Positions 13,254-19,644 of a stretch of 64,000 nt of DNA are shown here, piece by piece (the stretch's first letter is position 1; every line of letters begins with the position of its first letter). The notes under the pieces were generated by a model. The model did no database searches. It worked only from the letters and a program-made list of their open reading frames with translations, and had not been told where the DNA came from. The stretch lies in the IMG/VR virus record IMGVR_UViG_3300023198_000771; one strand, written 5' to 3'. The stretch comes from an uncultured virus (IMG/VR IMGVR_UViG_3300023198_000771) (lineage: Duplodnaviria > Heunggongvirae > Uroviricota > Caudoviricetes > Crassvirales). The position numbers and the translations under genes are program-made.

Positions 13254-13505
13254 TTATTTAGGTGTGTTACGAACTACAAAGTAATCTTCTTCAGGATCGA
13301 AAGAGGGTTCCAGTTCTTCACAGGCTTGTTGGATCTCCAATCCTTTGATCCCAATTCCTTCCAATGCCTTCCTGGATAACTTAAAGTGATTGCACTTGAG
13401 AATGAAGTGTCGCAGATCCTCTCCGGTCAGGGTGTTGATCCGTAGTTTGAATTGCTCATCGGTTATTACCGATATGAATACTCCTGGTCTAATCTCTTTT
13501 TCCAT
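13254..13505 (-). CDS. Hypothetical protein
   Basis: Probable start MEKEIRPG at 13505. Confidence 0.55.
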   Translation of the reverse strand: MEKEIRPGVFISVITDEQFKLRINTLTGEDLRHFILKCNHFKLSRKALEGIGIKGLEIQQACEELEPSFDPEEDYFVVRNTPK

Positions 13506-13761
13506 ATCGTTGAATATAAAGTTTGGGCCTGTTATCCCTGGGATGTAGTTCAAATTCAAGGCTACCTACCTTAAACTTGATTCCTTTTGCCATGATCTTG
13601 TACCAGGGAGTGCGGATTCTGATCCACAGAAGCCGTTTAGCGGTCCAATTTGCCACTTTATCGTACCAATGATACTTCCGGTATAGATACATCAATAGAT
13701 ACGTGATACCGAATGTTACGGCACTTGTGGCCACCATTCCTAAAATCATTTCTTTCTGCAT
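13489..13761 (-). CDS. Membrane-anchored hypothetical protein
   Basis: N-terminal hydrophobic helix; conserved leader AAAACCATACAACT-ATG. Confidence 0.6.
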   Translation of the reverse strand: MQKEMILGMVATSAVTFGITYLLMYLYRKYHWYDKVANWTAKRLLWIRIRTPWYKIMAKGIKFKVGSLEFELHPRDNRPKLYIQRYGKRD

Positions 13762-13775
13762 AGTTGTATGGTTTT

Positions 13776-13816
13776 AAAAAGCAGGAAGGAGAAACCAATA
13801 CAAACCCCTTCCTGCC
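13776..13816 (-). terminator. Terminator-like hairpin with loop GGUUUGUAUUGGUUUC
   Basis: Minus strand GCAGGAAGG...CCTTCCTGC-TTTTT. Confidence 0.7.
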
Positions 13817-13825
13817 CGAGTATCC

Positions 13826-14221
13826 CTATGTGTGGGACACCGTTTGGTTTTTTACATAATGCTCCAAATATTCAATAATCTTGGTCAATAGCTGTGCTTC
13901 AAATATATCATGGGTACGCATACGTTTGTCCACCCAGTAATGGATTAGCAGAACGATGTTGGGAGAGATGTACAGTTGATACTTCTGGTGATCGAAGTCT
14001 AACCAAATATCCGGTGGCCGGTACATGAACAGGCCAACAAATCCGAGGTGGCCTACTCTGGCTATCATCAGAGAAGGAATATCTGCTTCATGGAGTTTAG
14101 TCAGAAACATTGCCAAGTCTGGTAGCTTCATGTCCCATAGGAGGTCAAGGATCGTCATATCATCACCGTTGACCTTCATTGTCCCTTGCAGTGGTAGTTT
14201 TATGTCACCTATGAATTGCAT
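13826..14221 (-). CDS. Hypothetical protein
   Basis: ORF in minus-strand operon. Confidence 0.6.
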   Translation of the reverse strand: MQFIGDIKLPLQGTMKVNGDDMTILDLLWDMKLPDLAMFLTKLHEADIPSLMIARVGHLGFVGLFMYRPPDIWLDFDHQKYQLYISPNIVLLIHYWVDKRMRTHDIFEAQLLTKIIEYLEHYVKNQTVSHT

Positions 14222-14226
14222 ATCGG

Positions 14227-14448
14227 CTACAATTTAGTCATTAATGCGTGAAACATCTCATCTACGGCAATGCCCACAATCCGATCAGCTTTGATCCTGA
14301 CGTATGCCTTTGCTGCCTTTGGGCCTTGTGAGATGAATATTTTCTTCACCTCTTTCATCAGTTCCTTGTACTGGTCAAAGAACTCCATCTCTACCTTGAT
14401 ATTGTTTACAAATTCCAGTTCTTCCTTTGTTAATTTAAGATCATCCAT
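14227..14448 (-). CDS. Hypothetical protein
   Basis: Probable start MDDLKLT at 14448. Confidence 0.55.
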   Translation of the reverse strand: MDDLKLTKEELEFVNNIKVEMEFFDQYKELMKEVKKIFISQGPKAAKAYVRIKADRIVGIAVDEMFHALMTKL

Positions 14449-14683
14449 TTTGCTTGGTTTTTTTAGTTGATTTCTTGTGATTTCTGGTTCTGAATCTCTC
14501 AGCCTGTATGTAGAATATGTCATCACCTGACAGGAATAGCTTGTACTGCTCTCTGGTGAGTAAGGATCTGATCTCTGTGTTGGTGATCAGTTCGCCAGTG
14601 CGCTTACCATCCCTAAATATCTCATACTTGCCTTTGTTCGGGGCCGGGGCCTGGGAGAGGTATATGTTGAGTAGCTTTGCCAT
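14441..14683 (-). CDS. Hypothetical protein
   Basis: ORF coupled to upstream gene by TAATG. Confidence 0.6.
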   Translation of the reverse strand: MAKLLNIYLSQAPAPNKGKYEIFRDGKRTGELITNTEIRSLLTREQYKLFLSGDDIFYIQAERFRTRNHKKSTKKTKQNG

Positions 14684-14949
14684 TATCGTGGCAAGTCATA
14701 TACTCTGAAGTTGAGGTACTCGCTGCTGAAGTTCTCAGCCACATGGCCAAGCATCACTTCCAACAGTACGTCTGTGAAAATGTACTTGACCCCATTAGCC
14801 TCAAAGTAAATGATCAGGGTGTTGTCAGTCTTTGTACCCTCAACAACAAGTCGAATATCATCAGTGGCGATCTCTGCCCACTGGCACATTACACCCTTAC
14901 TGATACTGCTGTTAAGGAATGTCTGCCTTCTCACATTAAATGGTTTCAT
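14683..14949 (-). CDS. Hypothetical protein
   Basis: ORF preceded by the conserved leader identical to that of the 13761 gene. Confidence 0.6.
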   Translation of the reverse strand: MKPFNVRRQTFLNSSISKGVMCQWAEIATDDIRLVVEGTKTDNTLIIYFEANGVKYIFTDVLLEVMLGHVAENFSSEYLNFRVYDLPR

Positions 14950-14961
14950 AGTTGTATGGTT

Positions 14962-16050
14962 TTAACTTGGTCCTGCTGAGTCACCGAACGCACCAGAAGG
15001 GAGTTCCCAAGTATCAACGAAAATAGGATCGTTATATTCTGTTTGGGTTCCTGCTTTGATGAGTTCAGCACTCAGTCCATTTACACAGGCTTTGAATACC
15101 TTGCCAGTGGTAGCCTGTTCAACCACTGACTTAGTGCGGTGTATGGTTGTACCGAAATCCTGCTCGTATTCAGCTATCCGGTCAAATCCTTTTTGGTCTA
15201 TGTGCTGCACACTGGCCCATTGATTCTTTGAGCCAAAGATGCACTTCATACATGATAAGCGTCCCCATCCCAATTTGTAGGCAGGGTGAGGGTTCACCTT
15301 GTATTTACCAATGATGTCCCAAACCTGGGTTTCAGTCCATGCGTGGACGGGCCTCCAATGGTCAACATGACGTTTACTCTTCCCATTGCGTCTATCTGCC
15401 CTATCTGGCTCGAAAGTGTGGTATTTGGCTCTGGATGTGCTTTCTTCGGCACGTTCACCAGTTATGACCAGTGTGCGTTTGTTGTGGAAGCGGCTCTGGT
15501 TGGTGATGGCAGCCGTACATACATCTATCTTTAGATATGCTGAACACCATCTCACACTCAGGTTGGCTGACACCTGTGGAAACTTCTGTCTGGTATTGTC
15601 TGGCCCTTTGCCACCAGATAGGCCACACTCAATAAGGTTGTCCTCTGGATACTCCCAGTGGTTCCGGGAGGTGGGGGAGTTGAGGCGGTTCATCTCACGT
15701 TCAAATCCTCCCTCCTTCCATGAATAGAATATGGGTAGATCAAATGCACTGGCCACCTTCCTGCAATAGTCCTCAGTACAGGCCCAATCCATCAGCGTTG
15801 ATCCTTCCTTACCATCAATGAGGTGGTGCCACAGCTCAATCTTACTGCGATCCACACCGAGTTCAAACAGGTGAAGCAGACAGGCCGTTGAGTCCTTGCC
15901 CCCGGAGAAGGCAAGGATAACATGGTCATAGCTGTTTAGATCAGCCTCAATGGAGCGAGTCAGCTCCTCCTGCTGTTGGATCAGAGCAACCATGTCCAGT
16001 TGCCCTGACCCTCTCATCTGTTCACTGGTGAATAAAGAGTTCTGCATCAC
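14962..16050 (-). CDS. PAPS-reductase family (PP-loop, DndC-like) protein
   Basis: AFSGGKDS PP-loop, RWCSAYLK, TGERAEES..RA, WRPV..WT, RLSCMKCIF. Confidence 0.88.
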   Translation of the reverse strand: MMQNSLFTSEQMRGSGQLDMVALIQQQEELTRSIEADLNSYDHVILAFSGGKDSTACLLHLFELGVDRSKIELWHHLIDGKEGSTLMDWACTEDYCRKVASAFDLPIFYSWKEGGFEREMNRLNSPTSRNHWEYPEDNLIECGLSGGKGPDNTRQKFPQVSANLSVRWCSAYLKIDVCTAAITNQSRFHNKRTLVITGERAEESTSRAKYHTFEPDRADRRNGKSKRHVDHWRPVHAWTETQVWDIIGKYKVNPHPAYKLGWGRLSCMKCIFGSKNQWASVQHIDQKGFDRIAEYEQDFGTTIHRTKSVVEQATTGKVFKACVNGLSAELIKAGTQTEYNDPIFVDTWELPSGAFGDSAGPS

Positions 16051-16250
16051 TTAGCCTCCACATCATATATTACACCATCATCGCTGAGTGCTGCGATAGA
16101 CTGTGCGTTGAGAATACCTTGCCAAATAAGGTTCCAACTGTTCTCGTTGGCCCGGAATTGTTTCAGGATCACCTTATCGGTGCCGTGATAGACCGTGATT
16201 ATTCCATCACTGAGTTCTACCTTGATTGCTGCTGCTCCTAATCTACTCAT
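16047..16250 (-). CDS. Hypothetical protein
   Basis: ORF in operon. Confidence 0.6.
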   Translation of the reverse strand: MSRLGAAAIKVELSDGIITVYHGTDKVILKQFRANENSWNLIWQGILNAQSIAALSDDGVIYDVEAK

Positions 16251-16262
16251 GGCTATGGCTTT

Positions 16263-16616
16263 TTATTCGCTTAAATGTGGTGAAATAGTCCTGCCGCATA
16301 TTGGGCAGTCATCATCACAGGCACAACTCCACCTGTCAGTCCACTCATGTCCACAAACGCATTGATAATGGTTTGTCATGGTGTTTTCCTCATCTTCCTC
16401 ATCCATGATGCTGCCACCAGAATAAGAGTCAATAGATACTCTGCTATCCCAATCGGGATCGATGTCATCAATGTCAAGCATATACATTCCATCTTTCATT
16501 TCAGTATCTTCTGACCGATGGTTGTATGCTTCCTGATCTCTGGCCTCTTGGGTGGGGAAGGGGCCACATAGCTGCGGCTCCACATCTCCCCACACAATAA
16601 TTAGATAGTGCTTCAT
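16263..16616 (-). CDS. Acidic protein with C-terminal Zn ribbon
   Basis: CVCGHEW...CDDDCPICG. Confidence 0.6.
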   Translation of the reverse strand: MKHYLIIVWGDVEPQLCGPFPTQEARDQEAYNHRSEDTEMKDGMYMLDIDDIDPDWDSRVSIDSYSGGSIMDEEDEENTMTNHYQCVCGHEWTDRWSCACDDDCPICGRTISPHLSE

Positions 16617-16711
16617 TAGAGGATAGCATTAAGGGTTAATAATACGAAATAAGCCACCACTGCTGCTGTGAGCAGTGCTTGGGCCACCTGAGATACTGTT
16701 ATTGTTTTCAT
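16616..16711 (-). CDS. 31-aa single-helix membrane peptide
   Basis: MKTITVSQVAQALLTAAVVAYFVLLTLNAIL*; TAATG coupling to next gene; AACCAATAC leader. Confidence 0.65.
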   Translation of the reverse strand: MKTITVSQVAQALLTAAVVAYFVLLTLNAIL

Positions 16712-16724
16712 GTCGTTGTGTATT

Positions 16725-16783
16725 GGTTAAGACCACCTGATCCCGTCAGGCGGTTTCTGCTACTGAAGCGTCATCAGTTAACC
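16725..16783 (-). ncRNA. Type I hammerhead ribozyme
   Basis: GGUUAA-CUGAUGA-CGCUUCAGUAGCA-GAAA-CCGCCUGA-CGGGA-UCAGGUGG-UC-UUAACC: both core boxes, stems I-III, GUC cleavage triplet. Confidence 0.85.
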
Positions 16784-16957
16784 TTACCTCTTCCGGTACA
16801 CATTCAGTCCAAATGAGATACCATCACCCACAGGCTTGTTACCAAGCGTTGAGGCGATCTGAATAGTTTTGCCGGAGGCAGAGGGGCCGAAGTCCTTAGT
16901 CAGGTCCACCTCAATGGTCAGGATGTTCTTGTCGATTGTTGTTTTTACATTGTTCAT
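16784..16957 (-). CDS. 57-aa conserved beta-rich protein (possible nucleic-acid binder)
   Basis: MNNVKTTIDKNILTIEVDLTKDFGPSASGKTIQIASTLGN...FGLNVYRKR*; stop codon abuts the ribozyme. Confidence 0.7.
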   Translation of the reverse strand: MNNVKTTIDKNILTIEVDLTKDFGPSASGKTIQIASTLGNKPVGDGISFGLNVYRKR

Positions 16958-16968
16958 AGCTGTTATAT

Positions 16969-17148
16969 TTAAGTGAATAACCAGTGTGTTATTGATAGGT
17001 TCTCCCGGTACACCTCTGCATGGGAGTATTCGTTCTCATCCTTCAACCAAGTGGCCAATAGGTATAGTTCACCGGGAAGGATGTATTGCTTGTGGGGTGG
17101 GCCTTTATGCCTGTAAATAATTACCCAATATGCTACTCTTGTTTTCAT
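16969..17148 (-). CDS. Small hypothetical protein (59 aa)
   Basis: MKTRVAYWVII...HWLFT*; ATGA overlap with the methyltransferase stop. Confidence 0.55.
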   Translation of the reverse strand: MKTRVAYWVIIYRHKGPPHKQYILPGELYLLATWLKDENEYSHAEVYRENLSITHWLFT

Positions 17149-18032
17149 ATCAGTTCGTGTTGGTTAAAATATCTTATTGCTTCCTCACCGATCCACTTGG
17201 CCAGTGGTGGACATACAGCGTTACCGATCTGCTTGTACTGCTCAGTCTCACCACCATGAAATACATAGCTATCAGGGAATCCCATTACTCTGGCATACTC
17301 TCTGACAGTGAAGGGGCGATAGCCAACAGGGACAGAAGGATCAACAATCACTTGATGGCCCTTATTCTTGCCATACTGGGCCAGTAAGCACCTTGCATAG
17401 GTTCGGGGGTCACTTGGGTCAAGGATCACAGGTTTGTCCCTGTATTCACCGTCAAAACGTGCGACAACACTGCTTGTTGGTTCTATCCCGTTCCACTCAT
17501 CCAATAGATCAGATAACAATGGTCTGACAGTTACCTCTGGTGGCCTGAGTTCAAATGGCTTCCGGGTACCGATCAGGATCAAGCGAGGGCGTGACTGTGG
17601 TAGCCAGTTCAGCGAGTTCACCGGACATAGTATATTAATATAGTAGTCGGGGAGTTCTTGCATGGCTTCCATCACCACTGGAAACTTCTTCATGCCGGGG
17701 ACATTCTCAACGATATACATCTCCGGTTCCTCAATGGCAATGTGACGAAAGAAATGGAGGAAGAGATCATCACCTGTGCGGCTGCCCTTGATGTCAGCTA
17801 TTGCGCTGTAATGAGTGCAGGGATATGTACCCAGTATAATGGGAGTGGATGGCTGATCTTTTACCCTGATGTCCTTGATGTCCATCTCAAGCACTTTATG
17901 GTCATGGTTGGCCCGGAGGGTGGCAGCAGCATGAGGATCAAGTTCAAGGCTTTGTATAACCTTGATCCCGGCTTCCTTCATGCCCTGATCCATGCCCCCG
18001 GCACCACTGAAATATGATTTAGCTTCTATCAT
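17145..18032 (-). CDS. DNA (cytosine-5)-methyltransferase
   Basis: Motifs I FSGAGG, IV YPC, VI ENVPG, VIII QSRPR, IX/X REYARVMGFP..QIGNAV. Confidence 0.95.
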   Translation of the reverse strand: MIEAKSYFSGAGGMDQGMKEAGIKVIQSLELDPHAAATLRANHDHKVLEMDIKDIRVKDQPSTPIILGTYPCTHYSAIADIKGSRTGDDLFLHFFRHIAIEEPEMYIVENVPGMKKFPVVMEAMQELPDYYINILCPVNSLNWLPQSRPRLILIGTRKPFELRPPEVTVRPLLSDLLDEWNGIEPTSSVVARFDGEYRDKPVILDPSDPRTYARCLLAQYGKNKGHQVIVDPSVPVGYRPFTVREYARVMGFPDSYVFHGGETEQYKQIGNAVCPPLAKWIGEEAIRYFNQHELI

Positions 18033-18211
18033 CAGTCTATCTGATTTAATATGTCAATAGCTGCTTGAATATGAATAGCTGCCCTTCTCATTCTCTCAAG
18101 GTTGGTAGGGCCAAGTATGAGGGTTGTCCTGTCCTCATTTAGTTTCTGCTTGTTGTGGAGCGCAATACGCACCTTTTCAAGCTGTGTGATATGTGTGCTG
18201 CAAAGTGTCAT
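18032..18211 (-). CDS. Small hypothetical protein (59 aa)
   Basis: MTLCSTHITQLEK...LNQID*; TGATG overlap. Confidence 0.55.
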   Translation of the reverse strand: MTLCSTHITQLEKVRIALHNKQKLNEDRTTLILGPTNLERMRRAAIHIQAAIDILNQID

Positions 18212-18212
18212 A

Positions 18213-18695
18213 TCAGTGTTGGATTAGACCCTCATCAGCGAAGGAGAAATAGTTTTCTCTGGTGATAATGATGTGATCAAGCAGCTTGATTTCACAAAGT
18301 TCGGCTGCCTTGTTTATCTTCTCTGTTATCTTGATGTCTGCATCACTTGGCTGAATGTTTCCAGAAGGGTGATTGTGCGCTACGATGATGTTACAAGAGA
18401 AAGCTAAGAGCGCAGCAGCCAGTAGTGTACGGGTGTCGATAACTGTCCCTGATAGTCCACCTTTGGAGTGCAGGACAATGCCCTTGACTCTGTTGGCCCT
18501 GTTGAGTAGGATCAGGTAGAAAGATTCATGTGCTTCCAGTGTTCCCGGCTCCCAGTTGTTGCGCAGCATATCAGTCACTTCCTGACTGTTTTTAATGGGT
18601 TCATTCATGCCATCATTGACATAATGGAGCGTAGCTTGTGGCACTCCGTAGAGTGTTAGCTGCTCCTTAACTTGCTTGATTTCAATCTGTTTCAT
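18213..18695 (-). CDS. radC: RadC-like JAB domain protein
   Basis: ESFYLILLNRAN, AHNHPSGNIQPSDAD, LLDHIII, FSFADEG; probable start ATG 18695. Confidence 0.93.
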   Translation of the reverse strand: MKQIEIKQVKEQLTLYGVPQATLHYVNDGMNEPIKNSQEVTDMLRNNWEPGTLEAHESFYLILLNRANRVKGIVLHSKGGLSGTVIDTRTLLAAALLAFSCNIIVAHNHPSGNIQPSDADIKITEKINKAAELCEIKLLDHIIITRENYFSFADEGLIQH

Positions 18696-18742
18696 CGTAT
18701 TTGTGTATTGGTTTAACACTATTTATACTGTCTGTATGGGGG

Positions 18743-18823
18743 TGAAGTTACAACAACAGAATGAAAATAACAAATAAATATATCAAATAGATTTGTATAT
18801 TAAATATATTCGTTGTAGTATTG
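18743..18823. promoter_or_regulatory. Back-to-back divergent Bacteroidota-type promoters
   Basis: Minus: TTTG(18774-18771)-N20-TAACTTCA(18750-18743); plus: TTTG(18792-18795)-N20-TAGTATTG(18816-18823). Confidence 0.65.
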
Positions 18824-18855
18824 AATCAGAAACCAATACTAAAAACCGATACAAA

Positions 18856-19206
18856 ATGAGCAAAGAGATTAAGGATCAGACAGTTAACAGCTTTAACGCT
18901 GTGATTAATGAGAAACTGGACACACCAGAAAAGCGTTTGGATGTGGCCACAACCATCTGTAAAAGAGCGTTTAACGTAGTTGGCGATCTAACATTTCACC
19001 ATCTGAGTGAGTTCGACCACAGGGATGAGGATAAGCCAAGAGATCAGTTCTCCCCATCTATCTATTGGGTGTATGATTTCAAGGTAGAGGGGCTGACGGT
19101 ACCCGGAACCACTGACCAGTACAAGCACAACAGCATCACACTGGCTAACTATGGTGGTGTAGATTTCGGCTTTCACTCTTTCAATATCAGATACCTAAAT
19201 ATTTAA
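18856..19206 (+). CDS. Hypothetical protein
   Basis: Start MSKEIK after AACCAATAC leader. Confidence 0.65.
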   Translation: MSKEIKDQTVNSFNAVINEKLDTPEKRLDVATTICKRAFNVVGDLTFHHLSEFDHRDEDKPRDQFSPSIYWVYDFKVEGLTVPGTTDQYKHNSITLANYGGVDFGFHSFNIRYLNI

Positions 19207-19209
19207 GCT

Positions 19210-19644
19210 ATGAGAGACACAGATTTTATAAAAGTAGAAATATCCGTTGACATTGAGTTGAGCAATGGGGGCATTGAGTTGAAGAACCACGACTATTATT
19301 GGTACTCCTCAAGCAGAACAAAACCGGGAGAGTCTTATCTTGAAGTAATAGCCTTGATCAAGTCACTGTTGAAGCATGGGAGGCTTTCAATGATTACCAT
19401 TGATGTACTGAAGGGTAACACCCAAAGCACCACCACTGAGAATATCTATTCACTCCGCATGATCGAAAGGGGAGCCGGGGAGATGAGAGTAGCAAGATTT
19501 GAGAATAGTAAGTATAACTTTGATGATGAAGATACCATCACCACTCAAACACCTGAGTCATTTGTAGCCCAGTATGGAGCCGCAGCCAATGAACAGGCGA
19601 TGTATTACTGGATCGAATGGTTAAAAGAAATAACAGGAGCATGA
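19210..19644 (+). CDS. Hypothetical protein
   Basis: ORF in operon. Confidence 0.65.
   Translation: MRDTDFIKVEISVDIELSNGGIELKNHDYYWYSSSRTKPGESYLEVIALIKSLLKHGRLSMITIDVLKGNTQSTTTENIYSLRMIERGAGEMRVARFENSKYNFDDEDTITTQTPESFVAQYGAAANEQAMYYWIEWLKEITGA

Follow-up and report, generated by a model that had tools for sequence, protein, structure and literature searches.

What does a solitary 72-nucleotide (nt) spacer do in an otherwise tightly packed phage operon, and can it still do so when one of the most conserved pairs of its presumed structure is missing? This question is raised by a locus of an uncultured Crassvirales virus (IMG/VR record IMGVR_UViG_3300023198_000771), for which the whole stretch of 64,000 nt that was analysed is called the window here. 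All genes from 18719 to 13826 of the window lie on the minus strand and either overlap or stand no more than 12 nt apart, the sole exception being the spacer between a gene of 57 amino acids (aa) and a 31-aa open reading frame (ORF). The original prediction had placed in this spacer, between cistrons and on the sense strand of the gene row, a type I hammerhead ribozyme with a non-canonical C-A at the start of stem II. Judged by its sequence, the spacer is a type I hammerhead ribozyme and a real member of a phage family, an identity that is backed both by its anatomy and by its match to a covariance model of that family (R1). We lean toward the fuller reading that this family member splits an early operon in two, with the C-A layer next to its core being tolerated or selected.

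The anatomy of the element follows the hammerhead plan closely. On the minus strand, positions 16783-16725 read as stem I, CTGATGA, stem-loop II, GAAA, stem-loop III, T-C and the complement of stem I, and in this the prediction was correct to the base. It was also correct that the element starts on the base after the TAA (16786-16784) of the 57-aa ORF and that the predicted cut, between 16731 and 16730, leaves 19 nt ahead of the ATG of the 31-aa ORF at 16711. Stem I is open and stems II and III are closed by loops, which is the type I topology. The class-defining bases C3-U4-G5-A6-N7-G8-A9 and G12-A13-A14 are present together with A15.1 (16754), which pairs with U16.1 (16732) and adds an A-U to the 8 bp of stem III, and the cleavage triplet GUC at 16733-16731 agrees with the NUH rule and directly precedes stem I. 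All three helices are backed by covariation, which comes from the family as a whole and, for stem III, from compensatory changes in a related contig (L001). The feature of the class that the element lacks is a Watson-Crick pair at position 10.1-11.1, where C16770 stands opposite A16758 as predicted; the pairs G16769-C16759, C16768-G16760 and U16767-A16761 follow. The coordinates are collected in Table 1.

Rfam does not recognize this element. The whole window gave no match to Rfam 15 at the gathering score, and at E of 10 or less the 301 nt of 16600-16900 returned no hammerhead, just two irrelevant long noncoding RNA matches; the hammerhead families considered were RF00163, RF00008, RF02275, RF02276, RF02277 and RF03152. 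An Rfam scan, which had been put forward with the prediction as a check, is thus negative at both thresholds, and it has little power here because Rfam fails on canonical relatives too. Four loci with textbook G-C relatives reached at best 24.5 bits with RF03152 (gathering score, 56.3) and 15-17 bits with RF02275 (gathering score, 52), and the second family copy on contig L120 scored 24.7 bits with RF00163 (gathering score, 34) compared to 62.4 bits with R1. The R1 model has 58 positions, was trained on 102 canonical type I hammerheads from viral contigs with the window excluded, and was run on both strands of the whole window with filters off. It found one site, 16786-16722 on the minus strand, which matched over model positions 1-58 with 53.9 bits and an E value of 9.7e-10 (rough calibration); the second-best site on either strand scored 12.7 bits. 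For comparison, the training members score 64-76 bits, and the 16 loci outside the window that carry a variant of the kind seen here (see below) score 36.7-54.4 bits. No match was obtained by blastn of window positions 16200-17200 against GenBank phages, and an exact 26-mer from the element had no match in viral contigs.

The family was collected from viral contigs with a pattern (stem I TAA, the core, GAAACC...GGTC and TTA) that left the 10.1-11.1 position free. The scan returned at least 128 loci, with 122 distinct elements among the matches listed, and counts out of 122 refer to these throughout. In nearly all of them, stem I has 6 bp and is preceded by an A and followed by CAA, the length of stem-loop II is 12-14 nt, and stem III has 4-11 bp. 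We aligned 102 of the 106 elements with G-C at 10.1-11.1, namely those that had enough flank and were still distinct over a longer span. In this alignment, 96.9% of cells are paired and 406 cells show double-sided changes, a signal that none of 500 shuffles reached (slid controls were 27-40% paired) and that is carried only by the positions other than the three stem I and three stem III pairs fixed beforehand by the scan pattern. A stem-loop II of 13 nt, the length found in the window, occurs in 83 of the 102 canonical members.

Across the family, the element follows a stop codon directly, and the next start codon comes about 19-31 nt later. We measured this placement on 71 distinct elements of loci L081-L160, using flanks of up to 1.5 kb and ORFs of 30 codons or more. 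A stop codon lay within -9 to +10 nt of the element start in 49 of 69 family cases compared to 120 of 1202 positions drawn at random from these loci, and the next start codon lay 15-35 nt past the cut in 50 of 69 compared to 277 of 1174, which puts the controls at about 10% and 24%, respectively. Raising the minimum ORF length to 60 codons gave 40 of 66 versus 62 of 1020 for the stop and 40 of 68 versus 122 of 1067 for the start. The invariant TAA of stem I often doubles as the stop codon (distance, -6). The window element shares the family placement, with 0 nt to the stop and 19 nt to the start. As far as sequence and position can tell, this is a very abundant family of phage hammerheads, placed like cassettes between one cistron and the next.

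Relatives of the locus itself were reached through the 57-aa protein, which has no Pfam or PHROG family and has relatives in two viral contigs, L001 (81% identity) and L002 (55% identity). No hammerhead is present in L002. L001 carries the element at the same place, and stem I, both core strands, the C and A flanking stem II and the GUC are all identical; the leader after it shows 1 difference in 22 nt. Stem-loop II differs from that of the window at 7 of 13 bases, and in place of stem III there is another helix, of 6 bp, which is fully paired and capped by a GCAA loop. The conservation in related phages that the prediction had asked about is therefore found in L001 for the core, stem I, the C-A and the leader, with stem III changed in a compensated way. 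Contigs from four metagenome runs also cover the element, with a change in loop II at 16763, a shorter stem III (5 and 7 bases left out) and no core changes among the differences listed; one metagenome contig matches 16721-16784 alone and is unrelated on both sides.

We next turn to the C-A itself. Among the 122 elements, 10.1-11.1 is G-C in 106, an intact G-C preceded by an extra U in 9, C-A in 3, A-A in 2, G-G in 1 and U-U in 1, and no C-G, A-U or U-A occurs among the matches listed. States that need a double change (C-A, A-A and U-U) thus outnumber the single-change state (G-G). Scans aimed at the variant, with C10.1 plus A11.1 in viral contigs and any base opposite A11.1 in metagenome contigs, gave 17 distinct three-stem X-A elements including that of the window, in which X is C in 11, A in 6 and never G or U. 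The scan patterns demanded an intact core, so that the invariance of the core in the 16 other variants holds by construction, and the independent tests of core conservation are L001 and the metagenome contigs over the element only. The pair after the X-A layer is G-C in 15 of the 17 variants (the others have one G-U and, in L001, one A-C) compared to 39 of 102 canonical members, with a Fisher p of 1.2e-4 that is optimistic, given that the variants are not phylogenetically independent and represent about 13 distinct stem II types, and that leaves the support weaker yet clear. Within each of the pairs L065/L214 and L100/L221, stem II is common, and stems I and III are wholly different and fully paired. 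The flanks, stem I and stem III of L216:517-575 and L189:1050-1106 are identical; stem II of L216 differs, is 2 nt longer and starts with C-A, which looks like an exchange or insertion confined to stem II. Stem III is nearly the same in L205 (C-A) and L202 (G-C), and the variants mostly keep the intercistronic layout of canonical members. On these comparisons, a C-A pair next to the core is a rare but recurrent variant found in other phages, and the coupling of a C-A or A-A layer with a following G-C argues for a tolerated or selected alternative and not for decay. The X-A pattern had no matches in a set of one genome per prokaryote species and therefore gave no host or prophage lead.

If the reading that we prefer is right, the minus-strand early operon, from radC to the gene for a PAPS-reductase-like protein and beyond, would be transcribed as one RNA in which the element folds during transcription. 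G12 (16757) would activate the 2'-OH of C17 (16731) and the chain would break between 16731 and 16730, leaving an upstream RNA whose 3' end carries the stem III hairpin and a 2',3'-cyclic phosphate, together with a downstream RNA that begins with a 5'-OH at UUAACCAAUAC..., 19 nt ahead of the AUG. The weak, A/U-rich, 6-bp stem I would then fall apart, and the two operon halves would become separate mRNAs, independent of each other in stability and translation. Cleavage may be slowed or tuned by the C-A (or A-A) layer. The new 5' end would closely resemble the leader, and probably the transcript start, of radC.

This resemblance centers on the 9-mer AACCAATAC, of which the window holds 4 exact copies compared to about 0.5 expected on both strands. 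Three of the four lie just upstream of early-gene start codons: in the post-cut leader, in the radC leader (18713-18705, minus strand) and in the leader of the first plus-strand gene. Sixteen bases of the radC leader closely match the post-cut leader (exact match at 18701-18716). Copies with one mismatch are not enriched (18 found and 17.5 expected), nor is a 16-mer leader pattern with up to three mismatches (5 found and 2.9 expected), and we therefore count only exact and near-exact leader copies. In L001, the motif recurs at three places, ahead of radC, ahead of the divergent gene and behind the hammerhead, and both phages thus have three leaders in which AACCAAUAC stands about 8-16 nt upstream of the AUG. 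The idea that the motif is shared with other early genes thus survives for the leaders of the two divergent first genes, in the window and in L001. Stem I had further been proposed to mask the motif, and this can apply to 4 of its 9 bases (16728-16725) and fails for the remaining 5. In both phages, the radC copy is preceded within a few bases by a TATA(A/T)AT box, and judged by this -10-like box, the radC primary transcript probably starts at or just before the motif. The post-cut leader, 16712-16730, contains no Shine-Dalgarno sequence.

We also considered a stronger, joint proposal, which we regard as doubtful: that the variant would be a selected, undescribed architecture of the junction between core and stem II, and that the 3' product would mimic the start of promoter-initiated early mRNAs. 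If the first part were true, an extra non-Watson-Crick layer would be stacked on the tandem G.A pairs with an obligatory G-C next to it, the rate or the metal or pH dependence of cleavage would be altered, and some phage hammerheads would be conditional and not constitutive cutters. If the second part were true, an internal cistron would receive the 5' end of a first gene in a host whose initiation is not led by Shine-Dalgarno sequences.

Several observations weigh against the reading of an operon-splitting ribozyme, beginning with the silence of Rfam and the two limits on the variant comparison given above. A C at 10.1 lacks the purine N7 of G10.1, which is a metal ligand. A possible pairing between core CUGA and loop II UCAG puts the hammerhead fold of the window element 1.7 kcal/mol above the predicted minimum; among the 102 canonical members, this gap is at most 0.5 kcal/mol in 83% and has a 90th percentile of 2.1 kcal/mol. 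Stem II of L001 is very weak, having two Watson-Crick pairs and two C/A mismatches only. A scan for sigma-70 promoters and terminators over 13500-19300 performed at chance level (12 promoters found and 11.3 expected) and made no call at either the element or the radC leader, where the proposed start rests on the -10-like box. Finally, Perreault et al. 2011 (PMC3088659) describe G10.1-C11.1, which the window lacks, as the most conserved consensus pair besides A15.1-U16.1, and their search filter rejected mispairs at 10.1-11.1 unless activity was measurable.

Most of these points would fit a catalytically dead or nearly dead relic that persists as a structured spacer, for example as a hairpin protecting a 3' end or as a separator of cistrons, and the relic is also favored by the rarity of X-A variants in the unbiased scan (5 of 122 among the matches listed). 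We consider this explanation unlikely and still the most serious of the rivals. A dead element should lose its core, whereas every base of the core and of stem I is conserved between the window and L001, even though stem-loops II and III have changed heavily between them, the latter with full compensation. The variant state is specific, with C or A but never G or U opposite A and with the coupling to a G-C next pair, unlike what random decay would produce, and stems I and III covary within variant lineages. The competing fold is also removed in related contigs, where a G-to-A change in loop II makes the hammerhead fold the minimum. In addition, a natural hammerhead with a U10.1-U11.1 mismatch is reported to be active (PMC3088659).

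A second rival is a conditional ribozyme, in which the C-A or A-A layer would tie cleavage to conditions and the operon would be split at certain infection times only; the trigger may be a protonated A+.C wobble, higher Mg2+ or a bound factor, for example. The recurrence and specificity of the variant are consistent with this, as is the competition between the alternative and active folds in the window, and the discussion in PMC3088659 allows that slower phage variants might gain activity under suitable conditions or signals. We nevertheless find it quite improbable, given that canonical and variant members use one intercistronic layout, which suggests the same job, and that C and A at 10.1 need not behave alike. 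A chance look-alike, in which a G+C-rich hairpin (a terminator or RNase III site) happens to stand beside CTGATGA and GAAA, draws on the short core, the lack of an Rfam match and the strength of stem III as a hairpin by itself, but it is scarcely credible and already contradicted, since an independent family model gives an E value of about 1e-9, the chance hits of the viral variant scan separate cleanly (42 of 50 loci have a stem I of at most 4 bp, mostly without stem II), no T-run follows the hairpin, no terminator-like site was called there, and the core and stem I are conserved in L001.

The preferred reading, of a family hammerhead that would split the operon, can be set beside several known systems. 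Among viroid hammerheads, that of chrysanthemum chlorotic mottle viroid (CChMVd) has an extra nucleotide between A9 and G10.1 and likewise varies at the junction of core and stem II; this insertion is one-sided, with G10.1-C11.1 still adjacent on the other strand, whereas the variant in the window alters both strands. RiboJ synthetic insulators place a self-cleaving ribozyme before a cistron to give it a defined 5' end regardless of the upstream sequence. RiboJ is an engineered part and not a natural phage element, and the likeness to the window element would be functional, with no family relationship claimed. The closest natural counterparts are the type I hammerheads of phages and prophages (PMC3088659; RF00163 and RF03152, the latter named "RAGATH-1 hammerhead"), which have the same core of CUGAUGA, GAAA and GUC, the same open stem I and closed stems II and III, and which likewise lie between phage genes, with several on the same contig in many cases. 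Over the hammerhead part, RF03152 aligns with a canonical relative of the window element. The window differs from the type I consensus in having C opposite A where the consensus has G10.1-C11.1, and it differs from the Rfam hammerheads in that even the canonical viral-contig members fall below the gathering scores and the window was unreported. The active U10.1-U11.1 hammerhead of PMC3088659 likewise opens stem II with a non-Watson-Crick layer next to the core; in the variants found here, this layer is C-A (11 elements) or A-A (6 elements) and is coupled to a G-C next pair.

The intercistronic arrangement as such has been in print since 2011. Perreault et al. (PMC3088659) described hundreds of hammerheads in bacteria, close to prophage genes and frequently flanking a single gene, and proposed that long phage transcripts are processed by them into shorter, gene-length mRNAs. 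The same work describes a hammerhead of haloviruses HF1 and HF2 that lies 13 nt before a start codon and for which a mapped 5' end falls within 3 nt of the cut. By analogy, this HHphage element, which is likewise found a few nucleotides upstream of an early-gene start in a polycistronic transcript, offers the best precedent for the idea that the cut makes the leader. It differs in being a structurally distinct, salt-dependent variant of archaeal viruses and in preceding the first of several ORFs of its transcript, whereas the window element stands between cistrons (PMC3088659). In the literature that we covered, we found no description of a hammerhead with C10.1, A10.1, A11.1 or a C-A or A-A closure; the Dataset S1 alignments of PMC3088659 are outside this coverage and may list cases.

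Hammerheads between phage genes have thus been known for some time, with a role that is only proposed (PMC3088659), and a review states that their role in bacteria and phages still needs work (PMC6765202). Our results add that Rfam thresholds hide much of the abundance of one type I family in viral contigs, where a single pattern returned at least 128 loci, and that the fixed placement between stop and start codons makes the idea of an operon-cutting cassette quantitative. The recurrent deviation at a highly conserved stem pair offers a natural series (G-C, U plus G-C, C-A, A-A and U-U) with which the position could be tested, and the motif common to the post-cut 5' end and to promoter-proximal early leaders suggests a testable reason for the location of the cut. 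Current views are not overturned by these findings, and the locus is a good test case rather than a surprise.

Table 1. Coordinates of the hammerhead element, its flanking genes and the leaders that carry the shared motif (window positions)
Feature	Position	Strand	Remarks
57-aa gene directly upstream	16784..16957	minus	ORF; TAA (16786-16784) supplies the conserved A before stem I
Stem I, 5' strand GGTTAA	16778..16783	minus	6 bp with 16730-16725; near-universal length in the family
Core strand CTGATGA (C3 to A9)	16771..16777	minus	Identical in L001, which was found by protein homology with the motif not used
Stem-loop II, 13 nt	16758..16770	minus	Loop UCAGU (16766-16762)
Core strand GAAA (G12, A13, A14, A15.1)	16754..16757	minus	Sequence and R1 match
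Stem-loop III, 21 nt	16733..16753	minus	8 pairs (one G-U); 5-nt loop CGGGA
Predicted scissile bond, 3' of C17 (16731) and 5' of U1.1 (16730)	16730..16731	minus	Hammerhead rule, NUH triplet
Stem I, 3' strand TTAACC, first bases of the predicted 3' product	16725..16730	minus	Sequence
19-nt leader of the predicted 3' product	16712..16730	minus	Holds AACCAATAC at 16728-16720
31-aa hydrophobic ORF	16616..16711	minus	Stop overlaps the start of the next gene by one base
117-aa gene with Cys-rich C-terminus, next cistron	16263..16616	minus	ORF list
radC leader (first gene of the minus-strand row)	18693..18716	minus	Holds TTAAACCAATACACAA; preceded by a TATAAA box
AACCAATAC in the leader of the first plus-strand gene (ATG 18866)	18831..18839	plus	Exact copy

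The genes around the element were largely as predicted. The minus-strand row consists of radC, a C5 methylase gene, small ORFs and the PAPS-reductase-like gene, and searches with Pfam and PHROGs identified a RadC-like JAB domain, a C5 cytosine methylase and a PAPS-reductase-like protein there and a phage primase/helicase, a portal and virion proteins elsewhere in the window. The 31-aa ORF has no Pfam or PHROG match. The differences listed for related contigs at 16621-16645 are V>L, L>F, L>L, L>V, N>Q and L>F, which keep its hydrophobicity, and these conservative exchanges together with the stop/start overlap indicate that the ORF is probably real.

The predicted link between the ribozyme and this 31-aa gene is not a conserved feature. 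The operon of L001 runs from radC through the 57-aa gene and the hammerhead to a different gene of 106 codons, followed by homologues of the 88-, 80- and 131-aa genes of the window, and it is without the methylase gene, the 31-, 117- and 67-aa genes and the PAPS-reductase-like gene. The ribozyme and leader of L001 therefore precede another gene, and we rejected the 31-aa gene as a fixed partner of the ribozyme. Related contigs replace 16255-16586 (the 117-aa gene) with 644 other letters, 16044-16634 (the 31-aa to 67-aa genes) with 271 and 16957-17176 (a 59-aa gene) with 258. By these alignments, genes on either side of the ribozyme have been exchanged in a mosaic fashion.

The fourth exact copy of AACCAATAC, at 13793-13801, lies in the loop of a 9-bp hairpin, GCAGGAAGG / CCTTCCTGC, at window positions 13776-13813 (plus strand). 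This hairpin lies between the convergent ends of the plus- and minus-strand rows and is possibly a bidirectional terminator; the terminator scan made no call there.

Several contigs carry more than one family hammerhead, a few hundred bases apart and flanking single small genes. L189 has copies at 295-351, 711-767 and 1050-1106, and further multi-copy contigs are L084, L116/L124, L131, L151, L176, L184, L194 and L203. Three hammerheads lie within 800 nt of contig L120 (1001-1055, 1495-1558 and 1744-1799, plus strand), one being a type III match (RF00008, 39.9 bits) and two being type I copies of the family (67.0 and 62.4 bits with R1). On the minus strand of L087, a twister-P1 match at 1763-1827 (47.5 bits; gathering score, 67.2) lies about 200 nt from a canonical family hammerhead, so that ribozymes of different classes are clustered in this one viral contig. 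An A-A variant hammerhead stands directly upstream of a radC homologue with 31% identity to the RadC of the window (L220:601-1111 and L224), and radC genes thus adjoin family ribozymes in unrelated contigs.

The small RNA family RF01679 (Pseudomonas sRNA P36) weakly matches the C-A hammerheads at L010:95-140 and L011:387-432 (18.6 bits; E, 3.5), and this match runs through a shared CAGAAACCGGG...CCCG segment and is probably due to chance. The extra U between A9 and an intact G-C is a second recurrent variant of the junction; the nine elements that carry it, among the matches listed (L112, L115, L116, L134, L159, L161, L167, L190 and L195), have a stem-loop II of 14-16 nt compared to the usual 13.

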